A stretch of 63,536 nucleotides of DNA, filler included, from Aduncisulcus paluster (taxonomy: Eukaryota): the NCBI GenBank assembly GCA_024181965.1. It is 8 parts of 8 records of this genome, joined end to end, with 100 filler letters (N's around TTAATTAATTAA, not from the genome) between each part and the next. Parts side by side here need not be neighbours in the genome. Positions count along the whole stretch, not along the records: positions 21,468 to 34,994 come from BQXS01011339.1; 7 more parts are not named here. The stretch is one strand, 5' to 3'. Below are positions 11,501 to 38,241 of the stretch, piece by piece. A program made the position numbers and the translations under genes. The number at the start of each line of letters is the position of its first letter. The stretch's first letter is position 1. Below the pieces are notes generated by a model. It was not told where the DNA came from, made no database searches, and worked only from the letters and a program-made list of their open reading frames with translations.

Positions 11501-14500
11501 GTTTCATACGATCAGGCATATTGAAGAGGCAATCAATGGGATCTTTTGAATCTGAAAGATTCAACAACCGTCGTAATGTTTGCACTTGGTCAAAACTTTG
11601 AAGTTCATCTAATACAGGCTGCTTTGAGTTATTATTTTTTGCAATGTATATCGACTTGAGAAGCCCAGGGTGTGCATTCGAAGAAGATATTTCAAAATCT
11701 CCTGTCAACAAGGAATTTACATGGGAAGGTTGTATCACAAATTGACTTCCGTTTGGAATCATTATACTAAAGCTCCATAGGCAGAATAATACAAACAATA
11801 ACGAATGAGAAATGCGGTGGAAATCGGATTCAAAAATCTTATTGAAATGATCAATTAATTCTCTTGATTCAATTTGAATTTGTGGATTGGGATCACATTT
11901 CCACAGTGAAAAAGCCAGGAAGGCTCCAAAACTTGAGGCTCTATCCTTTAGCCATACAGATCTACCAAGAAATACTTTGGCTAATGATGGAGTTTTTATA
12001 AATTTTCTAAAAATCTTGAAAGATTTGGTTCTGATGCGTGGATCCTTATCAATGAGTCCGAAAGGGAACAGATCAAAAAAATTGAAAAAATAGGTCTGTG
12101 ATATTTTGCAAACAGAAGAGTGGATAATGTAATAATAATCACTTGAAAACTTGACAGAATATATTCGGATTCTTTGATCTGCATGCAACATCGATATTCT
12201 AGTTAAAATTGATAATCTATCTTTGAAACAGAATAACGTTATTGGATCAAGTTTATGAATCAATGAAGTGCAGATTAGGATAACAAATCTAACAAGTTGA
12301 AGATCATTGAAATACAAATTCCAAATCCAAAGTAATTTTGCAAAAAAGTTTACCTGAATTGCATTTGGAAGAAGATCTCCAACAACAGTTGCGATTGCAT
12401 CTGCAGTGGACATTGAATCTCGTTGATTCATAAATTTCAGTTGATTCATATTTCTATCATTTCTTTGAAAATAATTTTGACAATCCGAACAAATGTGAGG
12501 GAGGATTGTTGGAAATTCCAATGAAAATAATTTCACAATAAAAGATTTTATAAATAAATTCGAATATTGTGATCGATTATCCTTGAGAACATCCATAATA
12601 TTTGAAAATACTTTTGAGAAGGAAGAAGCTGAGAGAGATTTGAGATATTTAAAAACATGTGAAAGAAATGACTCTGAAATGAGCTCTCCTCGGAAATATT
12701 TGAGATTTATAGAAATTTCAAAAATATTTTTGGTCGACATCATTCGATTTGGCCGAGAATGACTCAAAAAAAAGAGCAGAAATTCTTGAGAGAAAACACA
12801 ATTCGGATTGAGAAATTGCAATATATTTTCATATGGGTGTCGAAACATTGCGCGAAAAATTGGCGATTGGGGTCCTTTTTGAAAACTCCGGTAAATATCG
12901 AATTGATTGCTCTTGATTATTATTGTGGAACCTTGGTTAAATTGTTCAAAAGTTTTGAAAAGACAGCAATCGAACAGAATCTTAAATATCATTTCATTGT
13001 AATAAAATGCACATATACTATCTTTTTGTCCATGGCGATGACATATTGAGAGGACTTCCCACAATTTTAAAATCATTTCCTTTGTCAACCCAAAACAAAT
13101 CGAAGGGATAATGACCATTATAGAAGCCAATTTATACGAATTAAATTGAGATGAAGAAACATTAAGCATATCATAAATATACTGTCCAAAATTAAGACTC
13201 AATGCTCGGGAAGAATCGTGATTGACACAAAAAGCAATAGAATCAAGAACTTGGACAAAATATTTATGGCGATTGAATCCATAATTCAATCGATGAAAAT
13301 GTAAATACTTTAAATATGAAGATAAAATCCCAATAAGTCCATTATATAACAAGCGAAGATCGATTTTATCTTGGAATCCATAAAGAGATATCAAAGAGAA
13401 CAATTGAGACAATATTCTGAAATGTTTTTCAAATATTTCCTGCTTTCCGCTCAAAGGATACTGATATTTGGATAGTTTAACCAAATCTTGTTCGATCGAT
13501 AGTAAAAAATTATTCTGAAACATCATGAAATTATCTTCAAATCCATGATCCATTTGATTTGAAAATAACCCAAATATAAACGGAGATATTCCGATTTTCA
13601 ATGAAAAAATGGGTGTCTTAGATTCAATTAACCAAAACAAAATCAAACTTGATAATTTTCCTTTTAAATGAGAGGTTCCATTTTGAAACACGATAGAAAC
13701 AATGCAAAAAACAATGCTATTAATAGAATTTGTATTAAAATAATCTTTCTGTTTGAGAAAATATTCATTACGAGTTGAAGAAATTTCAAATGCTTTGTTA
13801 TCAATACTTAGCATGGAAATATATGGATATAATTCATCTCTGGATTGAAAATGGGGCCAAGAGTAGAGAAATCCAATATTAAAAAGAAAAGCAAATTCAA
13901 TTTCATAACAAACCAATACATAATAAACACAATTCATTGAAATTCGACGTTTTTTACAAAATGTCCTCATGTCATAGTTTTTAGGACATTGTTCTTTCTC
14001 ATAAATTTCTTTGTTTCTCTTTAAATAGTCGAACAAAACTCTGTTAAATTTGTTCAAAGATTTCAGAAAACTAGATCCGGTGAATTCATGAGACAAAAAT
14101 AGCAAAAAATCAATTAAAATCTTCTCAAGCTCAAATATTGGAAGGAAATCCATCAATTTTGGTACTTTTACGATATAAGAGTTCGAATCAAAAGTATAAT
14201 TTCCGCAGATACAATGGGGTTCAAGTAGTGAAAGCAAAGAAATATATCCAATAATATGATCAATCAGCTCAGAAAAAGTTGAAGATCTGTATTTTTTCCT
14301 TCCACAAAGAGAAGATAGTAAACCAAGCAAGGAAGGAGCTGGTGGTACCGAGATAGAATCAATAGATTTTGTTGATGAACTTGCAAGTCGATTAATCGTT
14401 GATCCATGTAAGATATGAATATGTTTGGATAAGCATTGAATAAATGAGCTTGAAATCAGACATTGAATTGCAATAATACTATTAGATTGACCAGCAAACG

Positions 14501-17500
14501 AGGACCGCAAGAACTTTTTTGAAATATAAGAAAAACATTTCACTCGACAAATTAGATGATCAAGATTGGACGAGTCCATATGTTCGAGTTCTTGATGTAT
14601 TGAATATGACAACGCATTGTTTCGAATCCATTGAATGTGTATTTTTGTGTCAAATTTGCTTCCTCGAATTAACTTTTCAATATTATTCAAAAGGAAGAGA
14701 CAACAGTTCCATTTATGCATAGATGCCCTTGACGATACAAAATACATGGAATCTGCAATCTTTGAGCATATAATATTAGATTTGTGAATATTGTAAGATT
14801 TAAGAAATGAAATAAATTCAATTTCACAAACTTTTGGAAGACGACTGGCAATAGTTGGAAGGGACAAATCGGAAGAAAATGCCACATCTGGGGAGGGTTC
14901 TTCACAAATAATTTCAAAAAATTGTTTTGGAAAAATATTATGAAAGAAAAACTTCGAAACAGATTCCCAATTGAAGAATATGGTTGATACAAATTCAGAA
15001 ATCAATTCTTTGTCATCTGCTCGGAGAATCATATCATTCAAAACAATAATATTTGATAATAAATTGATTGTTTCTTGAATAAGATCTCTATCAATTGATC
15101 CAATACATGGAGAAAACCTCAGAAATATAAGATATGGCAACAAATCATTCAATTCATCTCGAAATGAGAAACAATGGATCAAAAATTGAGGAATTTGTGA
15201 TATAATATCGTGCATTTCGACAGGATAGTGCGATAAATACTTCTCAAAGATATGTTTAGGTAACAAAGACGTTGCTATTTCAGTTGGAACATAAGTAGCA
15301 CAAAATAGTTTAACGAAGTAAGAAAATACCCAATTTATCACCATAATTTGGATTGAAGGCTCATCAAATCTAGACAAATTTGACATGATCATTTCGAAAA
15401 ACTCAGTTTTGAGAACATATGTATCTGAACGTAATAATATTATTCGTAGAAGATTCACATAAATCCATTGGGATGATCCAGTTTGAGATTTCAGGGATTT
15501 TGTTTCGCATGTGTATATTCTTTTCCCCTTTATCATATCAAAACACACAGATAGGAGCTTAACAATGGAAATATATAATCGTTCCTCTTTCCACCTTCTT
15601 TCTGGAAGAAATAACCACGCATAAGCGTTATAAATTAGAAATTTTGCAGCGATAAGATGTAAATACTCATTTTGAAATTGTTGAACGGGGCTTTCAGAAT
15701 AATGAACGGGATTTATCAGAAAAAACACTAAATGTTGGAGACCAGAAAATGCTCTGATGGGTAACATCGACGCAAATGGAGGATTAATTGGAGCGAATGA
15801 CATATTCTTCGAGAGTAGGTTTGAAATTGAAGAATATTGAAATTCAAAAGAAACTGGGTTATTATTTGGAATGTTCAAGATTGATTTTATACAGCAAGAA
15901 GGAATTTGACATGTTCCAAATTCCTTTGTTGCATTATCTTGGCCATAAGTGATTAGATATTGGAACAAATAGGCTATTCGCTTGATTGAAAACAATTTTA
16001 ACTCCCTTTGGGCATTTATATGATCAAAATGGATAAAATTTCGGAAGGTATTCACAATATAAAACACACTAAGCGGATTATAAATTGAACTTTTGAGTTC
16101 AGGAGAAATACTTGTCAGAATCGTCGTTTTAATATTGGTGATCCGTTTCATTTGATCAACTGAGAAGAGAGAAAAGTAGAAAAACCAATCTTTCAACAAT
16201 TCTCTCCATGAAATTGTCACAGAATCGTCCGTTTTGAGGTAACACTGATAAATCGCCACATGTATCAGAAAGTTGAACAGAGACATGTCACATGAAAAGA
16301 AGGCAGGGAGGATATCGGGATTGGAAACGCGAAGAGTAAGTTGAGTAAGAGACAAAAATGTTCTAAGAAGTGTGTGTCCACGCCAACCATGGCACAATGC
16401 CACAAGACAAGTCAAATGACCAATCCTATGAATTGGAAGTCTCGATCTGATTTCATCATCAGAATAGCGCTTGTGACAGAAAATATTATTTGTATGACAA
16501 GCGATCAGATATGGAAATTCTTTGTCATTCGCAATGTTGGCAAGAATACTAAGACCTTCTCTGTCTGGAGAATCTAGAACAGCAACTCTCATCAAATATA
16601 CTGACATAAATTGGAAACAGGGCAAAAATTTATGTATATATTGGGGATAATTATCAAAGAAAAATGAAGATATGGACATTAGAAATGACATGGATTGATC
16701 ATATTCCAATTGGAAATATGTGAGTTTAATAATACTGGCAGGAGTTAAATGTTTCTCACCGGCTAAAAATAGTCTATCCAAAGGAATCTTCTTATTAACA
16801 GTTTTTTTAACTCTTGTTGTTGTATGGGATATTATAAACTCCGAGACAAATGGAAGTTGAAGCAAAGCATTCCAATGATCCTCAAACTTCTCGGAAAATA
16901 TCTTTTTGATCATATGAAATGATGTTATTGATCGTTTTAATGATCTATTTCTCGATTTGATTGTTTTCAAAATCTTTGAATCTGAAAGATCGGGCAAAAT
17001 CCCAACAAACAAACCATCCTCCCAGTTTTGGAACATTTTCACTCCGTGCCACAAATATGTCAAAACACATCCATATATAGCTAATATTTTATGATATTGA
17101 GAAAGTTGAGGTTCTGGAAGTTCATGAGTATTGTATTTGGAGATGACATCGCTGAAATTTGTCCTTCCAGACATTTGAAGAATCCTCAAATAAACGATTT
17201 GCGCAATAACGACAATATTATATTGCTGATGGGTAAATCTACGAATAAAATATTCCTCGACTTCGATCATACACTTAATTTCATACATTTGTTCTGAATC
17301 TCCAAAATGATCGCAGAGAGGAGCATAAAATCTGGATATTAGAATATTTGGAAATGATATTTTTGTTCCAATTTCACATACACATTTTGTAATATCAATA
17401 AACTGCCAAAATGGGATCTGCAAAAGCTCGAGCACAAGGGAATTATCAGAAATATCATCTTCAGAGTGGAAAAAATCATATTGAAGGGGTCTAGCAAAAT

Positions 17501-20194
17501 TGACATAAAAACAATGATAATTATAAAGAACGTATTGTGCCAATGATCGACATAACAACACATAAACTCCGTATGAATACTTATTCCAGAATTCAGGGTG
17601 ACCTTTCGTTTCCTTTTTGATGGAGTGAGCCGGTGAAGATATTTCCTCAGACGATTCGTTTTGATAATATATATTTCTTGAAAAGAATTTTCTCTTCATT
17701 CCAACTCTTTTTAACAAAGCTTCATCTCTTGCACCTTTCAAACTCTTCTTTTCATGCTGATCGTGATCAGAAAATGGAAAATTTGACAGATATTTTGATT
17801 TGGAAGAGATGGTAATATAATAGACCATATCAGCGATGTTTTGGGAAAAATAAATATTCGAAAATGTAGAAATTTTGGATTCAATGTTCGAATCGATTTT
17901 CATTTCTTCATTCTCAAAAAAAATATCACTCCAATTCTGATCTTTGAATTCACTTAACATTTCCAGAATTGTTGAATGAGATTTCTGCGAAAAAATCGCC
18001 AAAAAGAAAAACAAAACTCGATAATCCTTTCTCCATATTCTAAAAAAACCATCAGAAACAAGGATTGTTCTAATTTTTGAATAGAATCTTTTGAGATCAT
18101 CGATTTGATGCCAATTTAATAGACAACAATATAATAATAAGAAAACTATCATATTATCATTCCCAAGTTTTCTATCAAGTAAATCAGTAACATAATCTTG
18201 AACAATAGCATCTCTATGCATCCAATCTCCAATTGTTGTATATTTTGAAGAAGGATCACGGCGTAAAGGAATTGTAAATCCATTTGGAATTAGGACCGAA
18301 TTAATACATATTAGCATAAATTCAAGCATTCGAAAGAGACATTGACGTTGCAACCCAGAAACAGGTGATAATTTGGAAGGAGGAACATAAAAATCAGAAA
18401 GAGCACCCATTGATTTTAGTTTTGAGCAAATATCCTTTCCATTAACATATAATTCATTGATATCAGGCCTTTCCCATGAAAAACACAACGAATATCCACA
18501 CCAAAAAAAGTGTTTAAGAATTGAACATTGATATTGATATTTCCTCATTTTTATAGCAAAGTTCTTATCATCAAGAAGAACATATGAAGCTAATGGTTGA
18601 CATTGAGAGCTATCCAAACATGACATATCATTTGAAGTAGAAGCAACTTTGTGACTTGATCGAGTGCATAGAAAGGAAATGTGATCGTCTGTTTGTTCAA
18701 CAAATTCCTTCGAAGAGGAGGAAGAAGAAGATAACAATGAGGATTCGTCTTCATCATCACAAGAAGAAATACTCACGTCTCGAAATCTTGAGAGATCAGA
18801 AATAATGTTAACTCTTGTATAATTCGGCCTGCCAATTGGTTTTTGAGGAATATCTCTAAATTTGGATGAGAGATAACCCAATAGGGTTGTACACAATGGA
18901 AGAAGAGAATGATAATGACTTGAATTTCTTGAGACAATAGTTCGCAAAATATACGAAATAAAGGGTAGAGAATGAATTGAAAAGGTGGCATTTAAGATAT
19001 TACTAACGAGAAAATCACAAAACTTCATGATATCATGTTTGTTCGTCCACAGAATAAACACTAGGAAAACAATTAGGGTATTTCTGATATGAACATTTGG
19101 AAAATCGGGGAAATTAAATCCTTTGATATCGTGGAATGAAGGAAAAGAATTGCCAACCCCAGATATTTCTTGAAAGGAATTAAATTCAATATTACTCAGG
19201 ATTTGATGAGAACAAGTCAGAGAATTTTGCCATAATTTCTGATTTTCTCCGCAATAATTAGCAATATTTTGAAATATTTGAATGATATTATCATAATTCT
19301 TCCCAATTTTGGAGTCATTACAAGCAAAGTAAAGATTTAGCAATAAAACCACATCGAAATATGTTATATTCCTGGATACAAGAGATTCTAATGTCCTATA
19401 TGATAAAATAGAATTTATAGAAAAGTTAAAATAACGTATTTTTGTGCAAATATTTACAAGATTGAAGAAAGGGAAGGAGTAATGATCTGCGGCACAACTA
19501 CAAAGTCGTGATTTCCCTTCATTTCCATTCAAAAGGGAAGATATTTTTGCCAAATTTGGATTTCTTCCCTCAAAATTGAGAATAAAATTTTTAAATGATG
19601 GAATATGATGAAAAATGAAAGAAATTTCTGAAGGAGACACCATGAATGGGAAAATAGGATTCATTAAAACCCAGACTCTCTTATATATTCGGTTTAAATT
19701 GTGATATGCAGTATAACACGGGTAGAAATTACCAGAAGAGATTGGAAAAAAGTTACAATTCGATTTCAATCTATTCTTTTCATCAAATTGAATACAGCTC
19801 ATTCCTCCTACCTTTTGTAATACACAATTTTGGTGAATTTTCCATAAAACAACTACTGTNNNNNNNNNNNNNNNNNNNNCATGAATGGGAAAATAGGATT
19901 CATTAAAACCCAGACTCTCTTATATATTCGGTTTAAATTGTGATATGCAGTATAACACGGGTAGAAATTACCAGAAGAGATTGGAAAAAAGTTACAATTC
20001 GATTTCAATCTATTCTTTTCATCAAATTGAATACAGCTCATTCCTCCTACCTTTTGTAATACACAATTTTGGTGAATTTTCCATAAAACATGTTTTAGCT
20101 CAAAATATATGGAAGATAAGTCTTCGAAAACGATATCGGGAGAATGAAGGATAGATCTGGCTTTTTTAAGAAGTTTTATACATTTTAGTATCAT
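8595..20194 (-). CDS. Giant (~3,800 aa) uncharacterised protein, probably an alpha-solenoid (HEAT/ARM-like); true start probably 20194 once the gap duplication is collapsed
   Basis: 11.2-kb stop-free ORF in very AT-rich DNA. Scattered HEAT-like segments (GLIDKDPRIRTKSF, LWKCDPNPQIQIES, SVSVRKAASSTF). ORF 19853..20194 overlaps the duplicated flank and supplies the N-terminus. Confidence 0.6.
19641..20090. other. N20 scaffold gap (19860-19879) with ~210-bp duplicated flanks (assembly overlap)
   Basis: 19641-19851 is repeated from 19880. Confidence 0.9.
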
Positions 20195-20568: not shown

Positions 20569-21367
20569 TTAAGGAACTTGGGGAGTTCTATCCAAATCAG
20601 TCATATTGAGAAGGGCAACAAGGATAATGGCAACAGGATACAAAGCCAAAATGATGAATCCCCAGTACACCTTGATGTTTTTCATGAGAGAACCTATACA
20701 ACCGACAGAGATAACAACAACCCAAATAGTGATGGTTTCGGCAGCGTAGGTCCAACATAATTGATCATAAGAAGCCACAAGACACAAGAAAACACCAAGA
20801 CAAAGAGTGTTGTTCATGATAGCAGCACCATAACAGGCTGAGCATGTCATACTAGCACTCTTCTTGGTCTTTTTGCTTGCAAATTGGATTGAAGCGATCA
20901 ATTCACTGAGATTTGAAGCCATAGGAGTGAAAATGAATGAGATATAGAAAGGGTTGGACATACCAATCTGAGTGGAGAAATCTGACAGAACATCACAACA
21001 AGGATCAGAGAATAATGTCACAATAGCAACACCGAGGATCATCAAGAAGAGAGATTTACCAAGAATAGAGTCCTTGGAGGGTTCTGTCACTTTGATTTCA
21101 CCAGTGGCTTCGTCCACGCTTCCCTCTTCTTCCTCGTCGCTTTTCTTCTTCTTGGCGGCAGCTTCGAGCTTAGCATCAGCGGAAGCATCAGACTTCTTCT
21201 TCCAAAGACGTCCAAGAGCAAGGACCTTGTCATCAGAAATGGTTGGCTTAGGTTTCTCTTCCTCTTTCTCTTCATCGGAGTTGCTAAGAAGACCAGTAGT
21301 CTCAGAGGCTTGTTGAGCCATGTTCTTTTCCTTCATAATGGCCATGAAAGCATTGAGTGATCTCTTC
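20569..21367 (-). CDS. NCL-type sodium/calcium exchanger (CaCA superfamily), C-terminal half; 5' truncated at contig end
   Basis: LFSDPCCDVLSDFS..IG....FYISFIFTPMASNLSELIASIQFASKKTKKSASMT.S..YGAAIMNNTLCLGVFL matches the alpha-2 repeat of NCL/EF-CAX exchangers. Confidence 0.88.
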
Positions 21368-21467
21368 NNNNNNNNNNNNNNNNNNNNNNNNNNNNNNNNN
21401 NNNNNNNNNNNTTAATTAATTAANNNNNNNNNNNNNNNNNNNNNNNNNNNNNNNNNNNNNNNNNNNN
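21368..21467. other. Artificial contig linker N44-TTAATTAATTAA-N44 (also at 34995-35094, 38141-38240, 43849-43948, 49575-49674, 55260-55359, 60539-60638)
   Basis: Identical 100-nt spacer carrying stops in all six frames, seen seven times. Confidence 0.98.
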
Positions 21468-22021
21468 CAAATCCTAAAAAATATGTTCCTGTACTTGCTG
21501 TTGGTTTTGATGATCTTGAAACTAGAATTGTCCAACAAAAGCTTGTTTTAAAACAACAATACAAGGCCAAGCAAGTGATGGAGGAGCGTTCTCAGAAGCT
21601 TCAACAACAAATAGCCGATTTGTCCGATGTGAAGTTTGTAAGCCTTCAGATTCTACAATCTCAACTTCGCCAAGTAATTTTTAGATTGCTAGCCCGTCTG
21701 CATCAAATTTGTGATGTATCGCAACATGCTCCAGAGTTTGAAAGAGAATTAAAAATGATGCGTGGAAAGCTCGATAGTTCGATTGACAAGGGATTGAGAC
21801 AACTTACTCTTAAATCAAAGGCCATGAAACAGAAACCAGATCATAAAATCGATGAAGCTCAACTCAGTGATGTTACAAGAACTCTTGGAGACATGAGTCA
21901 GGCGATGGAACAACTTGTTGGAACTGTTAAAAAGATTGAAAAGAATATGAAGCTTGCTCAGGATGGAGTGAGGTATATAAAGGGGATTGGCGATGACTTT
22001 TTGAGTGAATTAGATGATTAG
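21468..22021 (+). CDS. NUP54: Nucleoporin Nup54/Nup57, C-terminal alpha-helical region; 5' truncated
   Basis: Frame open from the contig start: NPKKYVPVLAVGFDDLETRIVQQ matches the Nup54 'NP...PV...GF.EL..R...Q' motif. C-terminal 'QAMEQLVGTVKKIEKNMKL' coil. Confidence 0.75.
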
Positions 22022-22225
22022 TTGATTTGTTCTAGTGTCTTTTCCTAATAAATTCAATAATAATTGATTCTTGCTTTTATATTATCGCAATGCAGAAATA
22101 TATGCTTGAAACCAGATTTTCTTTATGTTTTTTCTGTCAGGGATTTCGAAACTTGTTTTCTCCGTCATTCTAATTGTTTCTTAAAAAAAGTTATAATATT
22201 TTTTCGATAAAATACATCATATCAT

Positions 22226-23824
22226 ATGCATTCACAAGTTTCAGCAGGAGATGAGGTGAATATGTCAAGTAGAGCGGCGATTTTCCGAAATCAGCTAATT
22301 GAAGAATTAAATGTTGATGATGAAGCATTCAAGTTGGGAAAATCAGCAATTTATTCAACTAGAGATGTGTTAATTGATCCTAATGTATTTACAAACATGC
22401 TAAAAGAAAATCCTTATCAATTGGTCAGATTTGGTGCAACTCAGAGAAAAGAAAATGGTACCCAATATGATCCCCGTTTAAGACGTCTCAGAAATATTTA
22501 TAAAATACCTGTTGGTGTGTGGGCTCATGAGTTTGTTAATTATTCTTCTGTTCAATGGTTTATGACGATTGTTGTCGTTTTAAATTGTATTTTAATTGGT
22601 GTAGAAGCTGAGCTTGATGAGGCTAAATGGTATTTAATGATTCAAATTCTTCGAATTATCGATAATCTTTTTTTGGTTCTTTATTGCCTTGAAATTATAT
22701 TAAAATGGATTGATAGTTTTAAAACATTTTGGCTTGATGCTTGGAATATTGCTGATTTCGTTATCACAATCACTGCCCTTCCTGACTTTGTGTTGAGTTT
22801 GTTTGGAGGTGGAAATGATTTGCTCAAAGCTGCGACCTCTTCATTGCGTTTGATGCGTGTTTTGCGTGTTTTGCGTGCTATTGGTCGATTTAGATCTTTA
22901 AGGGTCATTATGCATACCATTATGATGGCTCTTGGTTCCTTGATAAACTTAATTATTCTTTTGTTTCTCATGATGTTTATTTTTGCTCTTTTGGGGATGA
23001 CTCTTTTCAAATCCTACGTTCAATCTTCTCGAACGGATCTTTTATACAAATCACACTGGGATTCTCTCTCAAACTCCCTTTTATCCATGTTTCAAATGAT
23101 GACTCTCGATCAATGGTATTTCATTTTACAGGATGTTTCTCAAGTTGTAAATCCAGGAGTTGTGCTTGGTTTCTTCTTGGCGTGGATTTGGGTCGGTTCT
23201 TTCCTCTTCTTCAACGTTTTCGTAGGAGTTATGGTCAAGAACTTCCAGTCTCTTAAAGAGGATATGGCCAAGAAGCGAGCGGCTGAAAAGAAACAACAAA
23301 ACCTGACAAAGCTCCAAAAAGATATTGCACGTTCGATAACAAAGAGGAACAAGGAAGATATGAAGAAACTATTCAGAACAGAGACCAACCCTGCCACGTG
23401 TCTTCGTGAAAGATTTCCAGGTGATCGTGACGGTATACCAGGGGGGATTGGCATGGAAATGGGCCCTGAAATGGCTGTTCCAAGGACTCTTGGCCGTCCA
23501 GGGAGTGCGATTGGCCTTCGACCAACTTCACGAGATGGTGAAGGTGGCTTAGAGCAGCAAGAGATGATGACAAACAGGAATCCCAATGAAGTCTTAAACT
23601 CTCTATTTAGGCTTGAGACAAGTCTTGATACGCTTATCAAGCAAAAGAAGGAATGTGAAACAAAATGGCCCCGTGACACTCTGTTTAGATATTTTAGAGT
23701 GATGGAAGAATTGCAGGAAAATATTGCCGAGTATGAAAAATTACAGGTTTTGGTCGCAACTTCTCTTCATAACATGCTTGATGAAGCACAGAAAACGGGG
23801 GAAATGAGGATAGTTCATAAATAA
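22226..23824 (+). CDS. CATSPER2: CatSper2-like single-domain 6TM voltage-gated Ca2+ channel alpha subunit
   Basis: S4 LRLMRVLRVLRAIGRFRSLR; pore TLDQWY..LQD; S6 AWIWVGSFLFFNVFVGVMVKNFQ; N-terminal SRAAIFRNQLIE; CatSper2-specific tail WPRDTLFRYFRVMEELQENIAEYEKLQ. Confidence 0.88.
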   Translation: MHSQVSAGDEVNMSSRAAIFRNQLIEELNVDDEAFKLGKSAIYSTRDVLIDPNVFTNMLKENPYQLVRFGATQRKENGTQYDPRLRRLRNIYKIPVGVWAHEFVNYSSVQWFMTIVVVLNCILIGVEAELDEAKWYLMIQILRIIDNLFLVLYCLEIILKWIDSFKTFWLDAWNIADFVITITALPDFVLSLFGGGNDLLKAATSSLRLMRVLRVLRAIGRFRSLRVIMHTIMMALGSLINLIILLFLMMFIFALLGMTLFKSYVQSSRTDLLYKSHWDSLSNSLLSMFQMMTLDQWYFILQDVSQVVNPGVVLGFFLAWIWVGSFLFFNVFVGVMVKNFQSLKEDMAKKRAAEKKQQNLTKLQKDIARSITKRNKEDMKKLFRTETNPATCLRERFPGDRDGIPGGIGMEMGPEMAVPRTLGRPGSAIGLRPTSRDGEGGLEQQEMMTNRNPNEVLNSLFRLETSLDTLIKQKKECETKWPRDTLFRYFRVMEELQENIAEYEKLQVLVATSLHNMLDEAQKTGEMRIVHK

Positions 23825-23936
23825 TCCATCTATCGTTGTGTGAGATCAAATTAGCCAGAATATCAATATACTGTACTATTGATCTAAAAATAGAACATTT
23901 TGAGAATAATATTCTTTTAATTTATTTTTAAATGGT

Positions 23937-25999
23937 TTATTTCACGTATATTCGAACAGAGGCCTGTGCACCAAGAAGATATGATATTCTTTCTTTAGTA
24001 TATTCTGGGAAGTTTAGCTTCTTCTTCCCACGCTCGTCCTTCGAAGACAATTTTACCCATTCTTTTCCAATAAATTCTTCAAGGATCTTCTTTTCATGAG
24101 CAATGGATGAGCTCACAAATTTCTCCCGATCGGCGGCTTCTTTCTCATCCGGTTGATACGAAACACTGCCTGATTTTACAAGCATATCAATATATTTTCG
24201 GTTAGTACCGGATGAAACCGGCAAAAATACCGGGAAGCATAGATCATGAGATCCTGAACAGGGCGGAACATTTGCACTCCCCATTAATATTAACCCATTA
24301 CCACAAAACAATTTCATTTCAACACGTGATGGTACAAATTTTGATGATGTGAAAGGACAGACCATGTTTATAACACAATGTGAACCACTAAGTCGCTGAG
24401 AACAGACGTCCAATCCAATTCCACCAAACTTGTTGTACACCTTTATACAAGCGGTTATTGCATCCCAATCTTTAACCCAGCTCTCAAGGGAAACACTTTG
24501 GACAAGGATACTGCTGGACCCATGAGAAATATCAAGAACTTCTCCACGCTTTCCGAGGAGAGACTGGAGACGCATTTGATGTTCTTGGAAAGCTGAGGTG
24601 GAGCTCTTTGTGTGGGAGGTTTGTTTTCTATATCTTTCAACTTCTGACTGCGTAGACACAATGGAAATGGCAATGTCAACCTTGACTGGGGCACCTTCAC
24701 TTGGCTCTTTTCCACCTGTCTTGGTCTTTCCTNNNNNNNNNNNNNNNNNNNNCTCAAGGGAAACACTTTGGACAAGGATACTGCTGGACCCATGAGAAAT
24801 ATCAAGAACTTCTCCACGCTTTCCGAGGAGAGACTGGAGACGCATTTGATGTTCTTGGAAAGCTGAGGTGGAGCTCTTTGTGTGGGAGGTTTGTTTTCTA
24901 TATCTTTCAACTTCTGACTGCTTAGACACAATGGAAATGGCAATGTCAACCTTGACTGGGGCACCTTCACTTGGCTCTTTTCCACCTGTCTTGGTCTTTC
25001 CTTTATCCGTTTCTCTGGATGCATTCGATGTACGCTCCCCTCTTCCTCCTCTTCCTCCTCCTTCTTCACGATCGGAAGCCTCATCAGACTCTGAGAGCTC
25101 CTCAAGAGCATCATCTTCGGTTGGTATTCGCGATTGAGCCTTAATATCGTCAAAGGAGAGAGTCATTGGAAGAATCTGAGATATATTGATACGGACAGGC
25201 GAAGATGTTGAAGCGATTGTGAACAAACATCTACCTTCAAACCCGTCATCATAGCAGATATCCATGCATAACTTACTAGGAACCTTACTTTCACGTTTGC
25301 CACGCCGGCCCCCGGTCAATAAAACATCTTGCATCGCTTTTACACGTCGATTTATCGTATATCTTTCTATTTCTTCCCGAGAATATCTTGTTCCAGAATC
25401 AGTACGAAAAGTATCGGTCAGGGGGGATGTCAATGACTCTTCTCCCGAAAATGAAACCTTCTTTTCGGCAGTTTCGGGGGGCAATTGTCGTTTGGAACTG
25501 GAAAATCCACGGTATTTACGGAGGAATCCGAATAAATGAGAAAAGGTACTTTCTGAAGGTATCGTCTTTGCAAATGGGGAATATTCTGTGCGCAAGGGAA
25601 TCTTATCGTCTAAAATAGCACGTATTGGTTCATCTTTTTTAATTGGTGTTAGATCTTCCTTTGGTGTATATATTTTTGTAAAAAGGGTATTTCCGGCATA
25701 TGATGGATTGTTAGACATAATTATAGGAAGGTTACCATAATATCTTCCCATATCTTCCTCATCAAACTCTCCACTGTCCAAATCTTTTTTATAATTTTTG
25801 ACTTCGGATAAGGAAAATATTTTCTCTCCAAATAAAAAGAGAAATGTATCAGATTTGCCTCCACTTAAAATGATATCAGTTAGTTTGAGAATAAGCAATT
25901 ATGAGAAAAGGAAAATACATAAGAATAAAAGACATACATCTTCATTGAAACATTAAACAGAACAGAAGATAAAGGAAGCGGTAGATCGAATGTTTTCAT
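23937..25999 (-). CDS. MKS1: Probable divergent MKS1 (B9-C2 ciliary transition-zone protein); exons 25999-25938 and 25863-23937; contains a gap duplication
   Basis: The 74-nt intron (GTATGT, CTAAC branch, TTTAAG) gives MKTFDLPLPLSSVLFNVSMKIGG. 'FGEKIFSLSEVKNY' resembles MKS1 'WQEKLFSQFEVDLY'. 'GSANVPPCSGSHDLCFPVFLPV...EEFIG' resembles '[24 protein letters not shown]...RFFIGG'. Similarity judged by eye. Confidence 0.5.
24483..25002. other. N20 scaffold gap (24733-24752) with 250-bp duplicated flanks differing by one SNP
   Basis: 24483-24732 is repeated at 24753-25002; CGTAGAC vs CTTAGAC. Confidence 0.9.
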
Positions 26000-26223
26000 A
26001 ACAAACTTACCAATATATAAAAAAAGCTAAGAAAAATAATTGAATATATAAATAAGAATGGACCAAAAAACAGAAGTTTGAATTTCTTGGTGGAATAATC
26101 CAATATAACAGCCATATTTTCATATATTTATGTTTATTTGTCATTTATATAAGTAATAATTACACTAGTTGGACTTGAAATAAAGTTCTTTCTTAGATAC
26201 ATAGTTTTTGTTGTTTTGATGCA

Positions 26224-28898
26224 ATGGCTTCTAATATTACGAGAGAAGGAGATTTTGTTGTCTTTATGATTCGTGAAGAGCATATATATCTCACGAAACT
26301 TACAATCAAAGGGTATGTAAGGTGATTTTATTGTTTTCTGTTTTACAAGTTGTTTATGATGTTATTATAATTTTATATTGGCATATTTTAAGAACTCTTT
26401 CTATCAAAGATCTTAGACTCCCCTCTGATATTTTTGTAGGTCAGCCTTACGGCTCTTATTTCTGTATTGGAGAGGATGGTGTCGTTTCTAAACTGTGTGG
26501 ACAACCCCAACGAGTTGATGTTGGAAAAGGATCTCTAAGAGCTGTTCCTCTTGAAGATCACGGACAATCATTGACATCAACGGATGTTTCCAAACTCAGA
26601 AGCACAATTACTGGAGATAATCATATTTCAAAGGCAACTGACGTAACAATGAAAATTGCTGAAGGATCTGCTTCTTATTCCCTCAAAACTGTCTATGCCA
26701 AGGAAAAATGGGCCACCAAGATGAGAACTCGTCAGTCGTTTGTGTTCCAATTACTCCCTTCTACTCCTATGAGCATTGCTCGCTCTTATCTGACAGGAAT
26801 GAGAAACACTGTTACAAATAGTAATTATATCCTTTCTCCTACGGCTCTTGCGTTTCTTCTCAGACCTATAAATAGAACTCAACATCCTCACATAATGATA
26901 TATGAAGAAACTCGTGGACAATTCACTGCTGCCGTAATGCATCGATTTGGTGCAATGTCTGTCACAACAAAACGTAAGTTGGATGAAATTCTTGAGCAAG
27001 AAGCTAAAGATAGAAAACTTTTGAGAATTGCTGAATCTGAACGTCAAGAAAAAGAGTATGAAGCCCTTTCGGCATCCCTTTCTGATGTCAGTGAGGAATT
27101 GAGAGCTCAGAAACTTGAGGAATACACGACCAAAATAGAATCTGAGAAAGAACATACCCGTAGAGTTGAAGGTCTTTCTGAGGCCTTTAATGCCTTGACT
27201 CAGGTCTCGAATACTTCTGTTGTTGCCATGGGCAATGTAAATAGGAAGATAATGAGGGATAAGTGTCGTGAATTGAATATTACTCATGCAGGGAGCCATC
27301 CTTTCTTGTTACCTGTTCCTCTCGGAAGAATGGTCACAAAGCCAGTGTGGACAAGGATGAAATCACGTCAAGAAGAAGTCAAGAGAGCTAAAATGGAACA
27401 ATTGAGAAAGATACTTGGAGAAACAAAGAAACAAGAAGAGAAGAGAGAAGAAGAGAAGAGAGAAGAAGAGAAGAGAGAAGAAGAGAGAGAAGAAGAAGGA
27501 ATTAGTTCAATTGAGAAAATGATCATTGGAAAAAGGAGAGAAGGAGAGACTAAGCTTGCAGAAGAAGAAGAAGATGGAATAAGCTTAAAGAAACGTTCAG
27601 TTTGTGTTGAGTCTGAAGAGATTCCCCTTGTTTCAAATACTCAGTCAATTATTGTAACATTAAAAGAGCAAGCAGAGGAGAAAGAAGAGGAGAAAGAGAA
27701 AGAGAAAGAGAAAGATGAATTATTTTTCCCGACTTCCGCTTCTTTATCTTCTTTCATCCTCTCTGAGAAAGTCAGACAAGCGTGTCCTAGAATTTCTGGA
27801 AAAGCTCATTGCGAGGAAGTCTTGGACCATGTGTATGGCTCAGGTATTGAGAATAGACTAGCATTGACAAAGGCAGACATCTCAAGAGAATCAGTTCTCC
27901 CCAGTGTTCTAAAGACCTTCCCCCACAATTGTATAGTTCAGGACAGTAGTATGGACAAACCAGTGAAACAAGAAGAAGGAGAGATTAAGAACCTTGGAGA
28001 GTCAAAGAAAGACGAAGAAGGGGTTTCTTTGGATGTGCCTGAAGGTCTTCACCTCCCCGAAGTTTTCCCTAAGTTCCCTGTGTTTTCCCCATCCATACTA
28101 TATATCTGTGCCTTAAATACATCTCCAACACTACTCTTAGAGATCTTACTTCCATTTTGTCATCCCTCAACTTTACTGCTGATGCATTGCCCTTACGTTG
28201 AACCTCTTGTACAAGCCAAGGAAATGCTCATCAAACATAATTTAGCCTGCTTCGTGCATATTTCCACTCCCATTGAGACTGAATATCAGGTATTGCCAGG
28301 CCGGTGCAGACCAGAGATGACCACTTTAGATCGTAATGGGTTCATAATGAGTGCGNNNNNNNNNNNNNNNNNNNNGATTAAGAACCTTGGAGAGTCAAAG
28401 AAAGACGAAGAAGGGGTTTCTTTGGATGTGCCTGAAGGTCTTCACCTCCCCGAGGTTTTCCCTAAGTTCCCTGTGTTTTCCCCATCCATACTATATATCT
28501 GTGCCTTAAATACATCTCCAACACTACTCTTAGAGATCTTACTTCCATTTTGTCATCCCTCAACTTTACTGCTGATGCATTGCCCTTACGTTGAACCTCT
28601 TGTACAAGCCAAGGAAATGCTCATCAAACATAATTTAGCCTGCTTCGTGCATATTTCCACTCCCATTGAGACTGAATATCAGGTATTGCCAGGCCGGTGC
28701 AGACCAGAGATGACCACTTTAGATCGTAATGGGTTCATAATGAGTGCGATATTGTGTGAGAAAGGCAACATGAAATTCTCTGAGACGGAGGGAGATGAAG
28801 GGTTTGGTGGAAGAGCAAGTTGGGATAAAGAAGGGTACATGAAGAGGAAAAGAGTCGGGAAGAAACAGAAGCGAGGAAGAGGAAGAGGAAGAAAGTGA
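26224..28898 (+). CDS. TRM6: tRNA m1A58 methyltransferase non-catalytic subunit TRM6/Gcd10; exon 26224-26312, intron 26313-26392; C-terminus artefactually duplicated around the gap at 28356-28375
   Basis: MASNITREGDFVVF; FVGQPYGSYF; SASYSLKTVYAKEKW; EYQVLPGRCRPEM....GFIMSA. GG|GTATGT...TTAAG|A splice is in phase. Confidence 0.85.
27983..28748. other. N20 scaffold gap (28356-28375) with ~373-bp duplicated flanks, one synonymous SNP
   Basis: CCCGAAGTT vs CCCGAGGTT; otherwise apparently identical. Confidence 0.9.
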
Positions 28899-29138
28899 TC
28901 ATATTTATAATATAAAATTTATATGTTATCACACAACTAACTGAAGCTCGCATATCATATGTGACATCAACTATGTTTGCATGGTTCCATCTGAAGTTGA
29001 ATTGAAGTGCCGATGATGCTGAGAATTGCGTTTTATTCATCAAACAAGAAGCATATTGCAGAGTTTGCCAACATTTAAACGCTTTACTCAGATAGAAAAA
29101 ATAAGTAAATAAGCAATACCAGAAAATAAACAACAAAA

Positions 29139-31246
29139 TTATTCTTTTCGCTTTCTCATTGCTTCATACTGCGGTACAGCACGTCTGTGATGTTGCTGAG
29201 AATGAGGAGCTGGTTGATCCATCACCATACCAGGATCATACTGACCGTGGTACATATCCATCGAGTGAATCATGTCATGTCTAGGCATAGGGGGGTAATG
29301 AGGGTGATACTCGGGTGCAGGAGCGTATCTGTGATCATATTGGGGCTGTGGAGCATACTGAGGAGGCATAGGGTATCCTGGAGCTGAGGGATAGAAATGA
29401 GCATCGTGGGGGGCAGGGTAATAGCCGTAGTCTTGGGGGTGGCCATATCCAGAGTGTGGGGGAGGGTACATGGGAGCTGAGTGGACATATTCCTGATGAA
29501 TATGCTCAGGTCTGGCGTATCTTGGAATAGGGGCAGCACGAGAATGAGCCTGGGGGTAATAGGCCTCGGGAGCCGGCGTTTCATATCTTTTGTAATATTC
29601 GACAAAGGCTCTCTCTTCCTCAACCAATGCATTTCCTTTCTTCTTCAGAATCATAGCACTGTCATGAGCTTCTTTCTTCTTCACGTCGAGATTGGCACAT
29701 TGAGCAAGGAAAGGCGTCAGATCTTTATCTGGATTAGACTTCCGCTGCATGGCAATGAACATCTCCAACTCTTCTTTTTGTTTAGACGTTACTTCGAGCT
29801 GATGGACACACCTGTCGAACATGTCCTTTGTGGATGAGATCTCATGACGAAGCCCTTCAAGAGCCTCAAATGCACTCCCTCCAGGAATTGAAGGACGGAA
29901 TTGGGCACTGGCACTGTGATATTGGGGCTGGGGAGGAGGTGGAGAGGCCTGTGGCTGTCTCTGGTGGATCATAGGGTGTTCTCGGGTTGGAGGGATTGGC
30001 TGGGAACCAACATAATATCCCCCACGCTCGTCCATTGGCCCCTGTTGTTCGTGAAGTCTCATTTGTTGCTGTTGGCGTTCAGCCTGTTCGTGCATGGACA
30101 ATCTCTGAGAAACTTCTCCTTCAATGTCATCCCCATCAAGCGGGGTGGGTCCCATCATTGGAGGATGCTCAAGAGAGGGTTCAGAGGGGAAATAGGGCTG
30201 AGATTCTCGACCACTGGATCCAATGGAGTCGTGATGGGGAGGGGCAGTCTCCACGTGGGGCTGAGATGAATGAAATCCATAACCTTGAGGTGGATGGAAT
30301 GCCTCAGGTTGAAAAGATTGAATATGTCCTATTTGTGGATCATCCAGATGAGAAACTTCACTACCTCCGGTCGGGAGAGATGTTTCGGCGAGTTGACCTC
30401 CTTGAGGATGCTGGGGAATGGATTGTGGGTAAGAATCTTGTGGCGAATGGGTGTGATGCTCTAGATCTTCAAGAGATTGTGGAGAAGGGATGTGATGACT
30501 GGGATCTTGGGATAAGTGAGCAGGCTCAGTATACTCCGGTGGAGGGGAGAATTCTTCTTCATCATCAACAATAAAACCCATATTTTTGCGACGTAACCGT
30601 TCAAATTCAGCACCTGCACCGATATCAAGCTCCTCTTCCTCTTCTTCGAAACTGTTTTCTTCATCGGCGTGCATTGCAAGATGTTTTTCGAGATTATCAT
30701 TAATATCTTCCTCTATTGCTTGAAGTTCTTCATCATTTTTGTCTCTAATTTCTTCAGGAATCCAGGCATCTCGTGAAGATGTTAAATGATCCTTCGGACG
30801 TCTTCCTGGGCCAGAATAAGGTTTTGACTGTTGTGAAGGATTTGTAGACCGAAGAGCAAGGGAAATGCTTGATGAATGGGGATTTGTTGAATTTGAAAAT
30901 TTGGGTGTATAAGGTTGATCTGTTGGTCGGGTCGGGCGAATACGAGTTGGACGCTTTGTAGGACGAACTTTCCCGACTTTAATTATGCTTCGAACACTTT
31001 CTTTGATTATTAATGTGTCAGATTGTTGTAAATGATGATAAATCTTTAGTAATTCATCACGAGAATATTCTTGCGGAGGGGAACCGGCTATATGAGGAAA
31101 ATGAATTTCAATTTGATAATTGAAACGGAAATTTTCAAAAAAAAAGCAAGAAAGAACCAAGAATGAGAATCAAAGGTAAATTTGGAAATAGATACAATTA
31201 TTGGCAAAAAACATTATATTTACATACGTTTATGGTGTTTTGACAT
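29139..31246 (-). CDS. Disordered Pro/His/Tyr/Gln-rich protein with an N-terminal YxxxxLL (eIF4E/4EHP-binding-type) motif; exons 31246-31228 and 31087-29139
   Basis: A phase-matched 140-nt GTATGT...ATAG intron gives MSKHHKPGSPPQEYSRDELLKIY. Central coiled coil and low-complexity tail. Confidence 0.65.
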
Positions 31247-31700
31247 TTAATATTATATATTGATTTAGTATGAGTTTATACGGTCACCCAAACCCAAAAA
31301 TATAAATCTACATTCCGCAGCTTTCCATTTCAATACTCAATGCGGTAAAAGAATTTTAAATATCATTTTATTGATATTTTGTCCATTAATACTTTTCTAT
31401 CTCCATTATTTCAGCTATGGCAGAAAAAACTACTCTAAAATCATTTCTCGAATAATTTAATTAATAATCTCTCCTTCTTGCCAAGTATCTCTTCAGTATG
31501 ATGGAAATTAAGAAGGCAAAATGCCATTTCCATGATGCTATCAAAAGTTATGGGCCTATGGACACCAGAGAAGCTAAAGCAATTCGAAAAGTAGTATCAA
31601 AATTAATAATTATAATAAAAATATAATTTTAGTTTGGAAATCAGATTTATTTTATAATTAAGACTTCTGATAAACCTATACGAAAAAATCATTCAATTTG

Positions 31701-33026
31701 ATGTCCATGAAACGGAGGTTCATTGATGAGCAGCTTGCTCTTCTTGAGGAAGAAGAAAATCAAGAAAAGGAAGCACAAAATGCCTCCATTTTGAAGCATG
31801 CTAAACGAGAAACTGAGGATGATGATGAAGAGTTCGGAGGTTTCCTGAAAGAACTTGATGGAGAAGCTGATGATATTTATATAGATCAAGAGGAGTTTGA
31901 TGAAGGGAGTGAAGAGGAAGGTTCTGAATATCTCGATGGCGGTAAGAAGAAGAAAAAAGCTGGTCGTCGTGGGCGTATCTCTCGTATTGATGAATTTGAA
32001 GAGGAGGAAGAAGGTCCAGGATTAAGATTTGTTCAACGTGCTTTTCTAACCCGTAATTTAGCCTTCCGTTATTGGAGATTCAAATGGTTTAACCAAGCTA
32101 TTTCTGGTTCCTTTGTCAAACTATTATCTCCTAAAATGGTGGCATATGAACCAATTATTGAGTCGGAAAAGCTTGCTTATGTTGTTGGTATAAAGAAAGG
32201 CCCAGATTATCAGATTCCCAATGAAAAGAAAACGATTGAAGCCAAGGATGATCTAACGTACGTTCGCAGTGTTTTCTCCCTTAAAGCATCTCTTGAGAAG
32301 TGTAATGTTTATATTCGAGTCCAAATAGGTTGTCACAAGAAGAATATCAAGATCACAAGCCTGGCCAATATGCCGCCCACTCGCGAACTATACAGAGCCT
32401 TCACCACTGCTTGGAAAGAGATTCCTGCCGGAAGAGAGAAGCCTATTGAGTTCCCTTCTGCCGAGAGTGTCATTGCCAAGGAAGAAGATATTACTGCTAT
32501 GATTGTGTGTGACTATAATCGTTTTGTCAAGAAGGTTGAGACTGTTGGACAAAAGAAGAGGAAATTAGCTGATAAATATACCATGTTAAGAGAAGATCTT
32601 GCCAAAGCCCCTGATGATGCCACCATTACAGAGCTCCATGGACAACTTGTAAAGACTTTGGAGGAGTACCAACGTCTTGAGAAGATCCAACGTGGAACTG
32701 ACCAGGCGGAGGATATTGAGAGGGCCTCAAAGAAAGAATCTAGCATATATAAGTCGCACAGATTGCAGCAAATGAAAGATTTTCGTATCGATTTATTAGG
32801 TGACTCCCGAAGAACACTGAAAACATCACAACCAGTTGTGACAACATCTAAAGCTCCTGTGGAAGAAATGTCCCAAGAAAGGATCGAATTATTGAAATGT
32901 AGAGAAGAGGCAGAGAAGATACTTGATAAATATTGTCTCAGTCGGCTCCATCGAGGGGGAAGAGTGCTATTGGTTGAAGAGAGAGTTGCGCAAAGAACTG
33001 GAAGTCTGTTCAAGCGTGTGAAATAA
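31701..33026 (+). CDS. RTF1: RTF1-like Plus3-domain protein (PAF1 complex-associated)
   Basis: Acidic N-terminus, then LRFVQRAFLTRNLAFRYWRFKWFNQAISGSFVKL ... IKITSLANMPPTRELYRAF ... FPSAESVIAKEEDI, following the Plus3 consensus, then a coiled coil. Confidence 0.7.
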   Translation: MSMKRRFIDEQLALLEEEENQEKEAQNASILKHAKRETEDDDEEFGGFLKELDGEADDIYIDQEEFDEGSEEEGSEYLDGGKKKKKAGRRGRISRIDEFEEEEEGPGLRFVQRAFLTRNLAFRYWRFKWFNQAISGSFVKLLSPKMVAYEPIIESEKLAYVVGIKKGPDYQIPNEKKTIEAKDDLTYVRSVFSLKASLEKCNVYIRVQIGCHKKNIKITSLANMPPTRELYRAFTTAWKEIPAGREKPIEFPSAESVIAKEEDITAMIVCDYNRFVKKVETVGQKKRKLADKYTMLREDLAKAPDDATITELHGQLVKTLEEYQRLEKIQRGTDQAEDIERASKKESSIYKSHRLQQMKDFRIDLLGDSRRTLKTSQPVVTTSKAPVEEMSQERIELLKCREEAEKILDKYCLSRLHRGGRVLLVEERVAQRTGSLFKRVK

Positions 33027-33630
33027 TAAGGCATATCATAAATGACGGGCGAAAATTTATTTCGGAGGAAGTCACTCCAGGTCAAAATGTATTTTCGAAA
33101 AGTTATTCCGTTTAAATCATTTAAAATAAATTTTTATTATATAAAACAATAATATTATTATAATATATAATTATATTTTATGGTTACTCTTATAATATTA
33201 TCTTATTTCCTGAGATAGATTTTTCTTCGTGATTCAATACAAAATTATGATATTTTATTTAATAATTGTATTTAATATGAACAATAAAAACAGAATATCC
33301 TGATTTTCTATATTTAATTCCAATAAATTTTACCGATAAAAAAAATCGAATTTACTCCATAAATAAATAAAATATTTTAATAAAAATTAAAAAATATGTT
33401 GTTTTTCATTATACTTGTGTGAGAATGGCCAAATTATATGGCTGTATGACACAATAATGTCTCTATCTTGGCATGTGATAGACGATAAACCATCTTGGCA
33501 GTGTTTAATGAAATGAATATGATAATATATAAATGTTGATCAGCATCTCTGAGTAAGCCTTACTATACTGCACTGAGTGCATTTCATTATCACCACTTAT
33601 GTAGGACCCAATCGAGAGAACACTGTTCCC

Positions 33631-34072
33631 AAAATTATAAGTAAAAGGTTGACAATATATATACAATTGATTGTTGATATGGGATTGAAATATAAAAAAA
33701 AATTTAAAATTGGTGAATCTGATTGATTCATCTTCTCAATTCTATTTTTAGACAATACTACAACCACCTCCACCACATCCACAGACTGGCATTCTCTTCT
33801 TCTTCCCAACCTTATCAATCCTCAAATGCACAGCTTCAACGNNNNNNNNNNNNNNNNNNNNAAAATTATAAGTAAAAGGTTGACAATATATATACAATTG
33901 ATTGTTGATATGGGATTGAAATATAAAAAAAAATTTAAAATTGGTGAATCTGATTGATTAATCTTCTCAATTCTATTTTTAGACAATACTACAACCACCT
34001 CCACCACATCCACAGACTGGCATTCTCTTCTTCTTCCCAACCTTATCAATCCTCAAATGCACAGCTTCAACG
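33631..34072. other. N20 scaffold gap (33842-33861) with ~210-bp duplicated flanks, one SNP
   Basis: GATTGATTCA vs GATTGATTAA; produces twin ORFs 33597..33818 and 33822..34049. Confidence 0.88.
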
Positions 34073-34994
34073 ACTATCTCAATGTCATCATTATCGAAAC
34101 GAACAAGAACGGACGGTATCGTCCGATTTGTGACACGAACGGCATATCCTTTGCTTTTGCCATCCCCAAGAAGCCCCAATTCAAGGAATTTAGCAATGCA
34201 AGCCTCTTTTGCTTGCTCGAGATGCATGATGGAAGTACCAGAAAGACGAACAGAGGATCGATCGGACAACTTCTTCTTCTTCTTAGCACTAGGAGCAGGT
34301 TCAATTATGCCCTGGTCCAATCCTGCCTGAATGGTCCCACTATCCTTTGACTTTCGACTTAAAATATCATCTCTCTTCATCCTTTCACGTAAGTTTAATC
34401 GATCAAACAGTCCATCACCCGGGAATAGAACAACCCCAAGCTTTCCACAGTCAATGTCTGCTACAATGTCAAGATCACGTTCTGTACAGTACTTCGGGGA
34501 CATAAGTTGTGCCAAAAGGAGTTCTGACGGTGACATATCGGCCGTGGCAATGGCGGATATTTCCTCCTCCTCCTCCTCATCATCAATAGGAACAATACTA
34601 TCTGATGTGTCTTCTTCAGTCGCAAGAGGGACAGTCGTGGCATCGGATGTGTCTCCGTCTAAAGGTACAGATACGTCAGAAATATCAATTTCTGCGTCTT
34701 CACTGCCAACAACACGTTCATCTTCTTCGTCAACACTGACAAGGGGAGCTGTTTCTTCCTCCGATGTGTCCTTCTCATCTCTAATACTAACATGCTCAAA
34801 ATAGAATGATGGCTCACTCACAGACTGTGTCGGTGTCACTGGCCCTTGCCCTTTATCAGTATCCATTTGATCATCAACAGGAACAGGAGCCATCCCACTG
34901 AACTTCCAGTCAGACTCTTTCGAAGGAGAGGCTCTATCAACACGGTGAATCTGAACACGATCGTCGCCATGTTCCTTTGAGAGAGAAGCGCCCG
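33979..34994 (-). CDS. Uncharacterised protein C-terminus ending in a polybasic + Cys + CaaX prenylation signal; 5' truncated
   Basis: Frame open to the contig edge; ends GKKKRMPVCGCGGGGCSIV*. Confidence 0.7.
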
Positions 34995-35094
34995 NNNNNN
35001 NNNNNNNNNNNNNNNNNNNNNNNNNNNNNNNNNNNNNNTTAATTAATTAANNNNNNNNNNNNNNNNNNNNNNNNNNNNNNNNNNNNNNNNNNNN

Positions 35095-38140: not shown

Positions 38141-38241
38141 NNNNNNNNNNNNNNNNNNNNNNNNNNNNNNNNNNNNNNNNNNNNTTAATTAATTAANNNN
38201 NNNNNNNNNNNNNNNNNNNNNNNNNNNNNNNNNNNNNNNNG

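Follow-up and report, generated by a model that had tools for sequence, protein, structure and literature searches.

A probable CatSper2 orthologue encoded by an AT-rich, intron-poor, fast-evolving unicellular eukaryote

We identified an intact, intron-free open reading frame (ORF) whose product is very probably an orthologue of CatSper2 and is likely to be a working subunit of a CatSper-type Ca2+ channel in the flagellum. The CatSper2-like coding sequence (22226..23824, plus strand) runs from an ATG to a TAA stop codon and specifies 532 aa, and relatives of 485 to 545 aa align with it over their full length. It is located in a window of 63.5 kb (the whole stretch of DNA that was analyzed), in which eight contigs are joined end to end. 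An earlier note on this DNA had described an intact 532-aa ORF at 22226-23824 and had assigned it to CatSper2. The coordinates were confirmed exactly, and the identity as CatSper2 was supported by sequence, family profile, fold, C-terminal tail, and phylogenetic tree.

The start of the coding sequence may need to be revised. The true start codon of the CatSper2-like ORF may be that of M13 (ATG at 22262..22264, plus strand) instead of M1, because the alignments of the relatives begin at approximately residue 12, because residues 1 to 13 are disordered in the AlphaFold2 model (pLDDT <50), and because an RNA-like contig of run X2 (see below) begins at 22247. From M13 onwards, we found a conserved cytosolic N-terminal region (residues 13 to 105; 22262..22540, plus strand) with the motifs RA..FR..LIEE, P.QLV.F, and D.RL.R..N. 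The first of these motifs corrects the earlier note, which had given the N-terminal hallmark as 'RA..IR..LI'; the actual letters are RAAIFRNQLI, i.e., 'RA..FR..LI'. This region upstream of S1 was kept across an alignment of 15 sequences (the query and 14 relatives), in which F69, D82, R84, and R87 were near-invariant, and the profile match to the mouse CatSper2 chain 7eeb_B starts at chain residue 12. When residues 1 to 105 were used as the sole query against solved structures, there was no significant match, mouse CatSper2 included.

Pfam analysis revealed one copy of the Ion_trans domain (PF00520; residues 107 to 346) with an E value of 9e-44, which is far beyond chance for an ORF. In line with this, a six-helix, single-repeat layout was seen in both the AlphaFold2 model and the hydropathy profile, so the previous description as a single-repeat 6TM channel stands. 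The model was computed from 55 sequences and has a mean pLDDT of 78.4, with low confidence at residues 1 to 13, 29 to 36, 75 to 77, and 391 to 448. Pfam, alignment, model, and hydropathy define a voltage-sensor domain comprising S1 to S4 (residues 106 to 220; 22541..22885, plus strand). S4 harbors arginines at every third position (R208, R211, R214, and R217), followed by R221, R223, and R226, and the acidic counter-charges E156, D163, and D177 in S2/S3 are conserved among the relatives. The first four arginines are in register, as would befit the charged S4 that had been noted before.

The pore domain, which consists of S5, the pore helix, and S6 (residues 223 to 340; 22892..23245, plus strand), was delimited by Pfam, model, and hydropathy. 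According to the alignment, it contains the selectivity filter T293-L-D295-Q-W297 (23102..23116, plus strand), precisely at the position at which a pore motif TLDQW had been reported. T293, D295, and W297 were each invariant in 55/55 aligned relatives, and the pore motif was present in 56 of the 64 short matches (<1000 aa). In S6, directly before the conserved N330, the query deviates from its relatives: in the 55-row alignment, it alone has F at position 329 (23210..23212, plus strand), and the corresponding residue is R (51 sequences) or K (3 sequences) in the relatives and thus basic in 54/54. The presence of F329 in place of a basic residue may alter gating or subunit contacts. Further downstream, the AlphaFold2 model shows a low-confidence linker (residues 391 to 448; 23396..23569, plus strand), which is probably disordered as judged from this model.

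The linker is followed by a CatSper2-specific C-terminal tail, WPRDTLFRYFRVMEELQENIAEYEKLQ (23666..23821, plus strand), which was recognized by a tail-only search, a motif count, and the model. The tail begins with WPRDTLFRYF, where W481 corresponds to position 23666, and a long helix is predicted for residues 483 to 524 in the AlphaFold2 model. If only the last 173 residues were compared with solved chains, the sole significant match was mouse CatSper2 (7eeb_B; E value of 1.3e-5), in which the segment WPRDSLFRYFELLEKLQYNLEERKKLQ aligns with the tail. Furthermore, the motif WPRD[ST]LF.Y...QEN was detected in 40/64 short matches (<1000 aa), including all five of the five named animal CatSper2 proteins. 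This conserved part of the protein would probably serve assembly or the binding of cytosolic partners.

Searches against solved chains pointed to the same family. Using phmmer, mouse CatSper2 (7eeb_B) scored 179 bits, with query residues 16 to 357 aligned to chain residues 12 to 359 in addition to the tail, and the other single-repeat chains scored 92 (bacterial Nav 4bgn), 79 (CatSper3), and 70 bits (CatSper1). Four-repeat Cav/Nav chains head the phmmer list by total score because the scores of their four repeats add up; the best single Cav repeat reached 74 bits. With a profile built from the query and 14 relatives, 7eeb_B was matched in one stretch (chain residues 12 to 587) with 418 bits, followed by bacterial Nav with 166 and CatSper3 with 141 bits. 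The CatSper4 chain was absent among the 60 matches listed, in the phmmer and the profile search alike. In a Foldseek search with the AlphaFold2 model, 7eeb_B was again the best match (E value of 5.7e-13), the next being NavMs (2e-8) and the rest no better, and in the ESM Atlas, the two best clusters were both named CatSper2 (score of 0.96). The assignment to CatSper2 among the CatSper paralogues is based on the tail motif and on solved chains from mouse and human; the trees described below were computed without protist CatSper1, CatSper3, and CatSper4.

As the best structural match, mouse CatSper2 (7EEB chain B; 31% identity over the solved part) is a single-repeat six-helix subunit like the query. 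The two proteins can be aligned from the cytosolic N terminus up to and including S6, and again at the C-terminal helix, where they have WPRD[ST]LFRYF...LQ.N in common. They differ in that the overall identity is approximately 30%, the residues linking S6 to the tail show no relationship (in the query, disorder is predicted for them), and the query has F329 where its relatives have R or K; moreover, an animal protein is compared here with one from a unicellular eukaryote. Two other channel types were considered and rejected. A four-domain Cav/Nav channel does not apply because the ORF carries one repeat and not four. Bacterial Nav channels (NavMs, NavAb, and NaChBac) are similar in fold and in their single-repeat architecture, but they reached approximately half of the CatSper2 score (92 versus 179 bits with phmmer and 166 versus 418 bits with the profile) and are devoid of the CatSper2 N-terminal region and tail. 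The lower phmmer score and the presence of the CatSper2 tail in the query led us to reject a bacterial-type single-domain Nav.

CatSper controls flagellar beating in sperm. By analogy to animal CatSper, the protein would be one of four different pore-forming subunits (CatSper1 to CatSper4), which together would make up a channel of the flagellar membrane that is Ca2+-selective and weakly dependent on voltage. Each of the four subunits would contribute its aspartate to a selectivity ring, and Ca2+ entry would alter the waveform of the flagellum, which would serve either steering or the behavior of gametes. A different possibility is that the protein is a stand-alone, CatSper2-derived channel, which would form homotetramers without CatSper1, CatSper3, CatSper4, or the auxiliary canopy, as do bacterial Nav channels, which are homotetramers, or single-domain EukCat. 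We consider this unlikely, but of all alternatives, it is the one that best withstands the data. It would agree with the fact that no other CatSper subunit was seen in 63.5 kb: the window contains no second Ion_trans gene and no Pfam match to a CatSper auxiliary subunit, and when 10 unexplained ORFs were scanned for such auxiliary subunits with less stringent Pfam settings, there were sub-threshold chance matches only. In addition, the unique R/K-to-F replacement at position 329 in S6 could mean changed subunit contacts. However, 63.5 kb represents only a minute fraction of a genome, and the lack of further subunits in it carries no weight. Moreover, beyond the channel core, the protein has fully retained the C-terminal region that is specific to CatSper2 as well as an N-terminal region that is probably specific to it, and this fits continued partnership better. 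Finally, according to Salas-Leiva et al. 2021 (PMC8516963), CatSper alpha subunits are reported alongside beta, gamma, and delta in Carpediemonas, a free-living metamonad. We thus favor a role as a subunit of a CatSper-type channel over a role as a channel of its own.

The relatives of the protein were analyzed by two kinds of searches. A word-indexed search gave 27 matches, the nearest of which (40% identity) was named CatSper2 by its source; the next ones, with 30 to 34% identity, originated from zoosporic fungi or were echinoderm, hemichordate, and nemertean CatSper2 proteins. The proteins of zoosporic fungi (Cladochytrium, Piromyces, Neocallimastix, Anaeromyces, and Blastocladiella), echinoderms, and hemichordates have the domain order, the pore motif, and the tail in common with the query, at 30 to 34% identity over approximately 95% of the length. 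Overall, the nearest relatives were 30 to 43% identical over approximately 95% of the length. An exhaustive search identified 877 proteins with an E value of 1e-30 or better, and among the best 150 of these 877, the short ones were CatSper2-like and the long ones were four-repeat channels.

A tree with 68 rows was computed from matches of 400 to 999 aa and six excised Cav repeats, two weak matches being entered twice. It contained a clade of 58 rows (the query and the named CatSper2 proteins) apart from the six Cav repeats and the two weak matches, with an SH-aLRT support of 99. The earlier note had asked whether the protein would group with non-CatSper 6TM channels in a tree; with the Cav repeats as the comparison, the query stayed with named CatSper2. 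Within the 68-row tree, the animal proteins (SH-aLRT of 100) and the fungal proteins (98) formed clades that both excluded the query. Indeed, in all three trees computed, the query was placed outside both the animal (SH-aLRT of 100) and the fungal clade (98 to 100), so that the animal and fungal CatSper2-like proteins, despite the shared features mentioned above, make up strongly supported clades of their own. After removal of long or fragmentary rows, the resulting 42-row tree showed a four-row clade with the topology P0028, (P0002, (query, P0030)) and an SH-aLRT of 99. The three partners of the query in this clade are environmental or culture proteins, and P0030, its sister in this tree, is a high-GC-type protein. 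When the long-branched P0030 was left out (41-row tree), the remaining three-row clade still had an SH-aLRT of 99. By the AU test, for which the groups were chosen after the first tree had been seen, forcing the query together with fungi was rejected in the 42-row tree (p-AU of 5e-5), and forcing it together with animals was rejected in the 41-row tree without P0030 (p-AU of 0.002). Tentatively, and with more doubt than confidence, we suggest that the gene belongs to a CatSper2 lineage of its own outside the opisthokonts and that its host is a flagellate other than Carpediemonas that is deep-branching, AT-rich, and intron-poor.

The eight contigs of the window are joined by seven artificial linkers (21368-21467, 34995-35094, 38141-38240, 43849-43948, 49575-49674, 55260-55359, and 60539-60638), each consisting of 44 N, TTAATTAATTAA, and 44 N (N44-TTAATTAATTAA-N44). 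Since the linkers are artificial, gene neighborhood across them is meaningless, and only genes in 21468-34994, the contig of 13,527 bp that carries the CatSper2 gene, are linked to it. The database entry of the protein gives an identical length for its contig. These are a Nup54-like gene truncated by the contig start, an unassigned gene of approximately 600 aa, a Gcd10p/TRM6-like gene, an unassigned gene of approximately 510 to 675 aa, a Plus-3/RTF1-like gene, and a partial ORF. The linker at 21368..21467 parts this contig from the preceding one of 21,367 bp, at the end of which a Na/Ca-exchanger-like ORF is located (20569-21345, minus strand; Na_Ca_ex E value of 3e-13), which is therefore unlinked to CatSper2. 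An SMC fragment and a Surp/SF3A1 fragment are also on contigs other than that of CatSper2.

Besides CatSper2, 21 other long ORFs of the window were scanned, and 11 of them had no Pfam match at an E value of 1e-5. Among the latter is an ORF of 3735 aa (8595-19802, minus strand), and three more ORFs without explanation are those at 38446-43848 (approximately 1800 aa), 49676-53902 (approximately 1400 aa), and 56277-59003 (approximately 900 aa). The ORF at 46122-47705 (minus strand) has a hAT-family transposase dimerization domain (E value of 4e-6). Apart from a tRNA-Pro (AGG) gene at 8373-8445 (minus strand), no RNA gene was found in the window.

The locus is present in two coded runs, X1 and X2, which stem from one sample. 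X1 behaves as DNA, with a depth of 1273 to 1341 on three long contigs that extend past the contig ends. We infer that X2 is RNA because two GT..AG joints, both restoring reading frames, occur in X2 alone, because there is a poly-A loose end at 33146, and because the depth varies from 9 (intergenic bin 31390-31840) to 3368. Positions 22247-24482 are covered, with zero differing letters, by a 3382-base X2 contig that continues into the convergent neighbor of CatSper2; its mean depth of 209 is an average over these two genes. Since this contig spans the ORF, CatSper2 is probably transcribed in culture.

The two joints correspond to spliceosomal introns of 80 nt (26313-26392, plus strand) and 74 nt (25864-25937, minus strand), which were detected in X2 only and were absent from X1. 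Both introns are located just past a start codon and have the 5' site GTATGT, and the one on the minus strand also has an ACTAAC branch site. Removal of each intron brings an upstream ATG into frame with the main ORF, and therefore the Gcd10p-like gene and the gene of approximately 600 aa begin further upstream than the long ORFs suggest. The motif ACTAACACACAG, which we take to be the 3' motif of parabasalid/diplomonad-type introns, was not enriched in the window (2 matches with 2 mismatches versus 2.78 expected by chance).

The assembled contigs also allowed several observations on other parts of the locus. The poly-A loose end at 33146 in X2 is 120 nt past the stop codon of the Plus-3/RTF1-like ORF and is probably the polyadenylation site of this gene. 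At 27559, where the Gcd10p-like gene is repetitive, one X1 contig and one X2 contig have a 3-base insertion (AGA), which may reflect either an allele or a difference in repeat length. Four gaps of 20 N are present inside contigs. At three of them (24483-24752, 28062-28454, and 33730-33960), the DNA and RNA-like contigs skip 270, 393, and 231 bases, respectively; therefore, the window has duplicated sequence there. The internal repeat in the ORF at 23937-25751 (minus strand) is an assembly artifact.

The pieces of the window have a GC content of 34 to 46%, and each of the three stop codons is used. The owner of the gene is an AT-rich, intron-poor, fast-evolving unicellular eukaryote; its traits fit a fast-evolving protist, possibly a metamonad. 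Two other genes did not place the host: a phospholipase B has no close named relative (7 matches, the best named one being from Capsaspora, 31%), and the SMC fragment, with a best match of 81 bits to SMC4-like proteins of fungi, flatworms, and trypanosomes, is too divergent to be placed and bears a long-branch risk.

According to a second alternative, the CatSper2 contig would be a contaminant and would stem from an organism other than the source of the other contigs, e.g., from an animal, a chytrid, or another zoosporic fungus, lineages in which CatSper is already known. The window indeed consists of separate contigs strung together, without physical linkage to the genes of the other contigs, and the 552,051 contigs of the DNA run indicate that the sample was mixed. 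Nevertheless, contamination of this kind is very improbable. The query falls outside the animal and fungal clades in the three trees, and forcing it into either was rejected. Furthermore, GC3 is between 0.28 and 0.44 in all 22 ORFs across all eight pieces, synonymous codon use correlates at 0.78 to 0.94 between groups of pieces, and the three long DNA contigs over the CatSper2 piece are at one high depth (1273 to 1341), as expected of the main organism. The earlier note had named a contaminant contig as a possible explanation; a fungal or animal source is countered by the tree placement and the uniform codon use, and what is left of this explanation is a narrower version, in which the contaminant stems from an unsampled protist lineage.

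Least probable is that the protein is a non-CatSper single-repeat voltage-gated cation channel of the bacterial Nav or EukCat type: the fold is common to these channels, and bacterial Nav chains come directly after CatSper2 in the fold search, but CatSper2 scores about twice as high as any other single-repeat chain, the tail matches CatSper2 only, and the CatSper2 clade is separated with an SH-aLRT of 99 in a tree of sequences that did not include EukCat. We conclude that the gene most probably encodes a CatSper2 subunit.

To our knowledge, no other ion channel is as complex as CatSper, which has also resisted heterologous expression. A unicellular carrier of CatSper offers a system for studying a channel that is hard to express in this way. 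With the gene described here, a channel family previously reported in several protists gains a further lineage outside the animals. As stated in the methods of an eLife 2017 article, the genomes of Thecamonas, Allomyces, and Aurantiochytrium were searched for orthologues of CatSper subunits. In the literature on CatSper and metamonads, only the Carpediemonas paper and its preprint were relevant. Carpediemonas membranifera and C. frisia resemble the present case in that CatSper occurs in a free-living non-opisthokont flagellate, but the GC contents given for their genomes, 57.1 and 58.6% (PMC8516963), differ from the 34 to 46% of the window pieces, so that the organism studied here is a different one. 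The statement of the earlier note that no CatSper was known from a fornicate or metamonad lineage is outdated in view of the 2021 report (PMC8516963), and the first CatSper reported in metamonads is that of Carpediemonas and not the gene described here.

The value of this CatSper2 gene hinges on the placement of the organism and on the presence of other subunits. The origin of CatSper moves back with every well-supported subunit that is discovered in an unrelated flagellate. According to a 2021 review, CatSper arose in the ancestor of apusomonads, animals, and fungi and is thus younger than the last eukaryotic common ancestor. [quoted passage not shown] If the host is a second metamonad or belongs to another 'excavate'-type lineage, the evidence would add up with that from Carpediemonas, a labyrinthulid, and further transcriptome matches, and CatSper would then date to or near the last eukaryotic common ancestor, earlier than the ancestor of apusomonads, animals, and fungi favored in the review.
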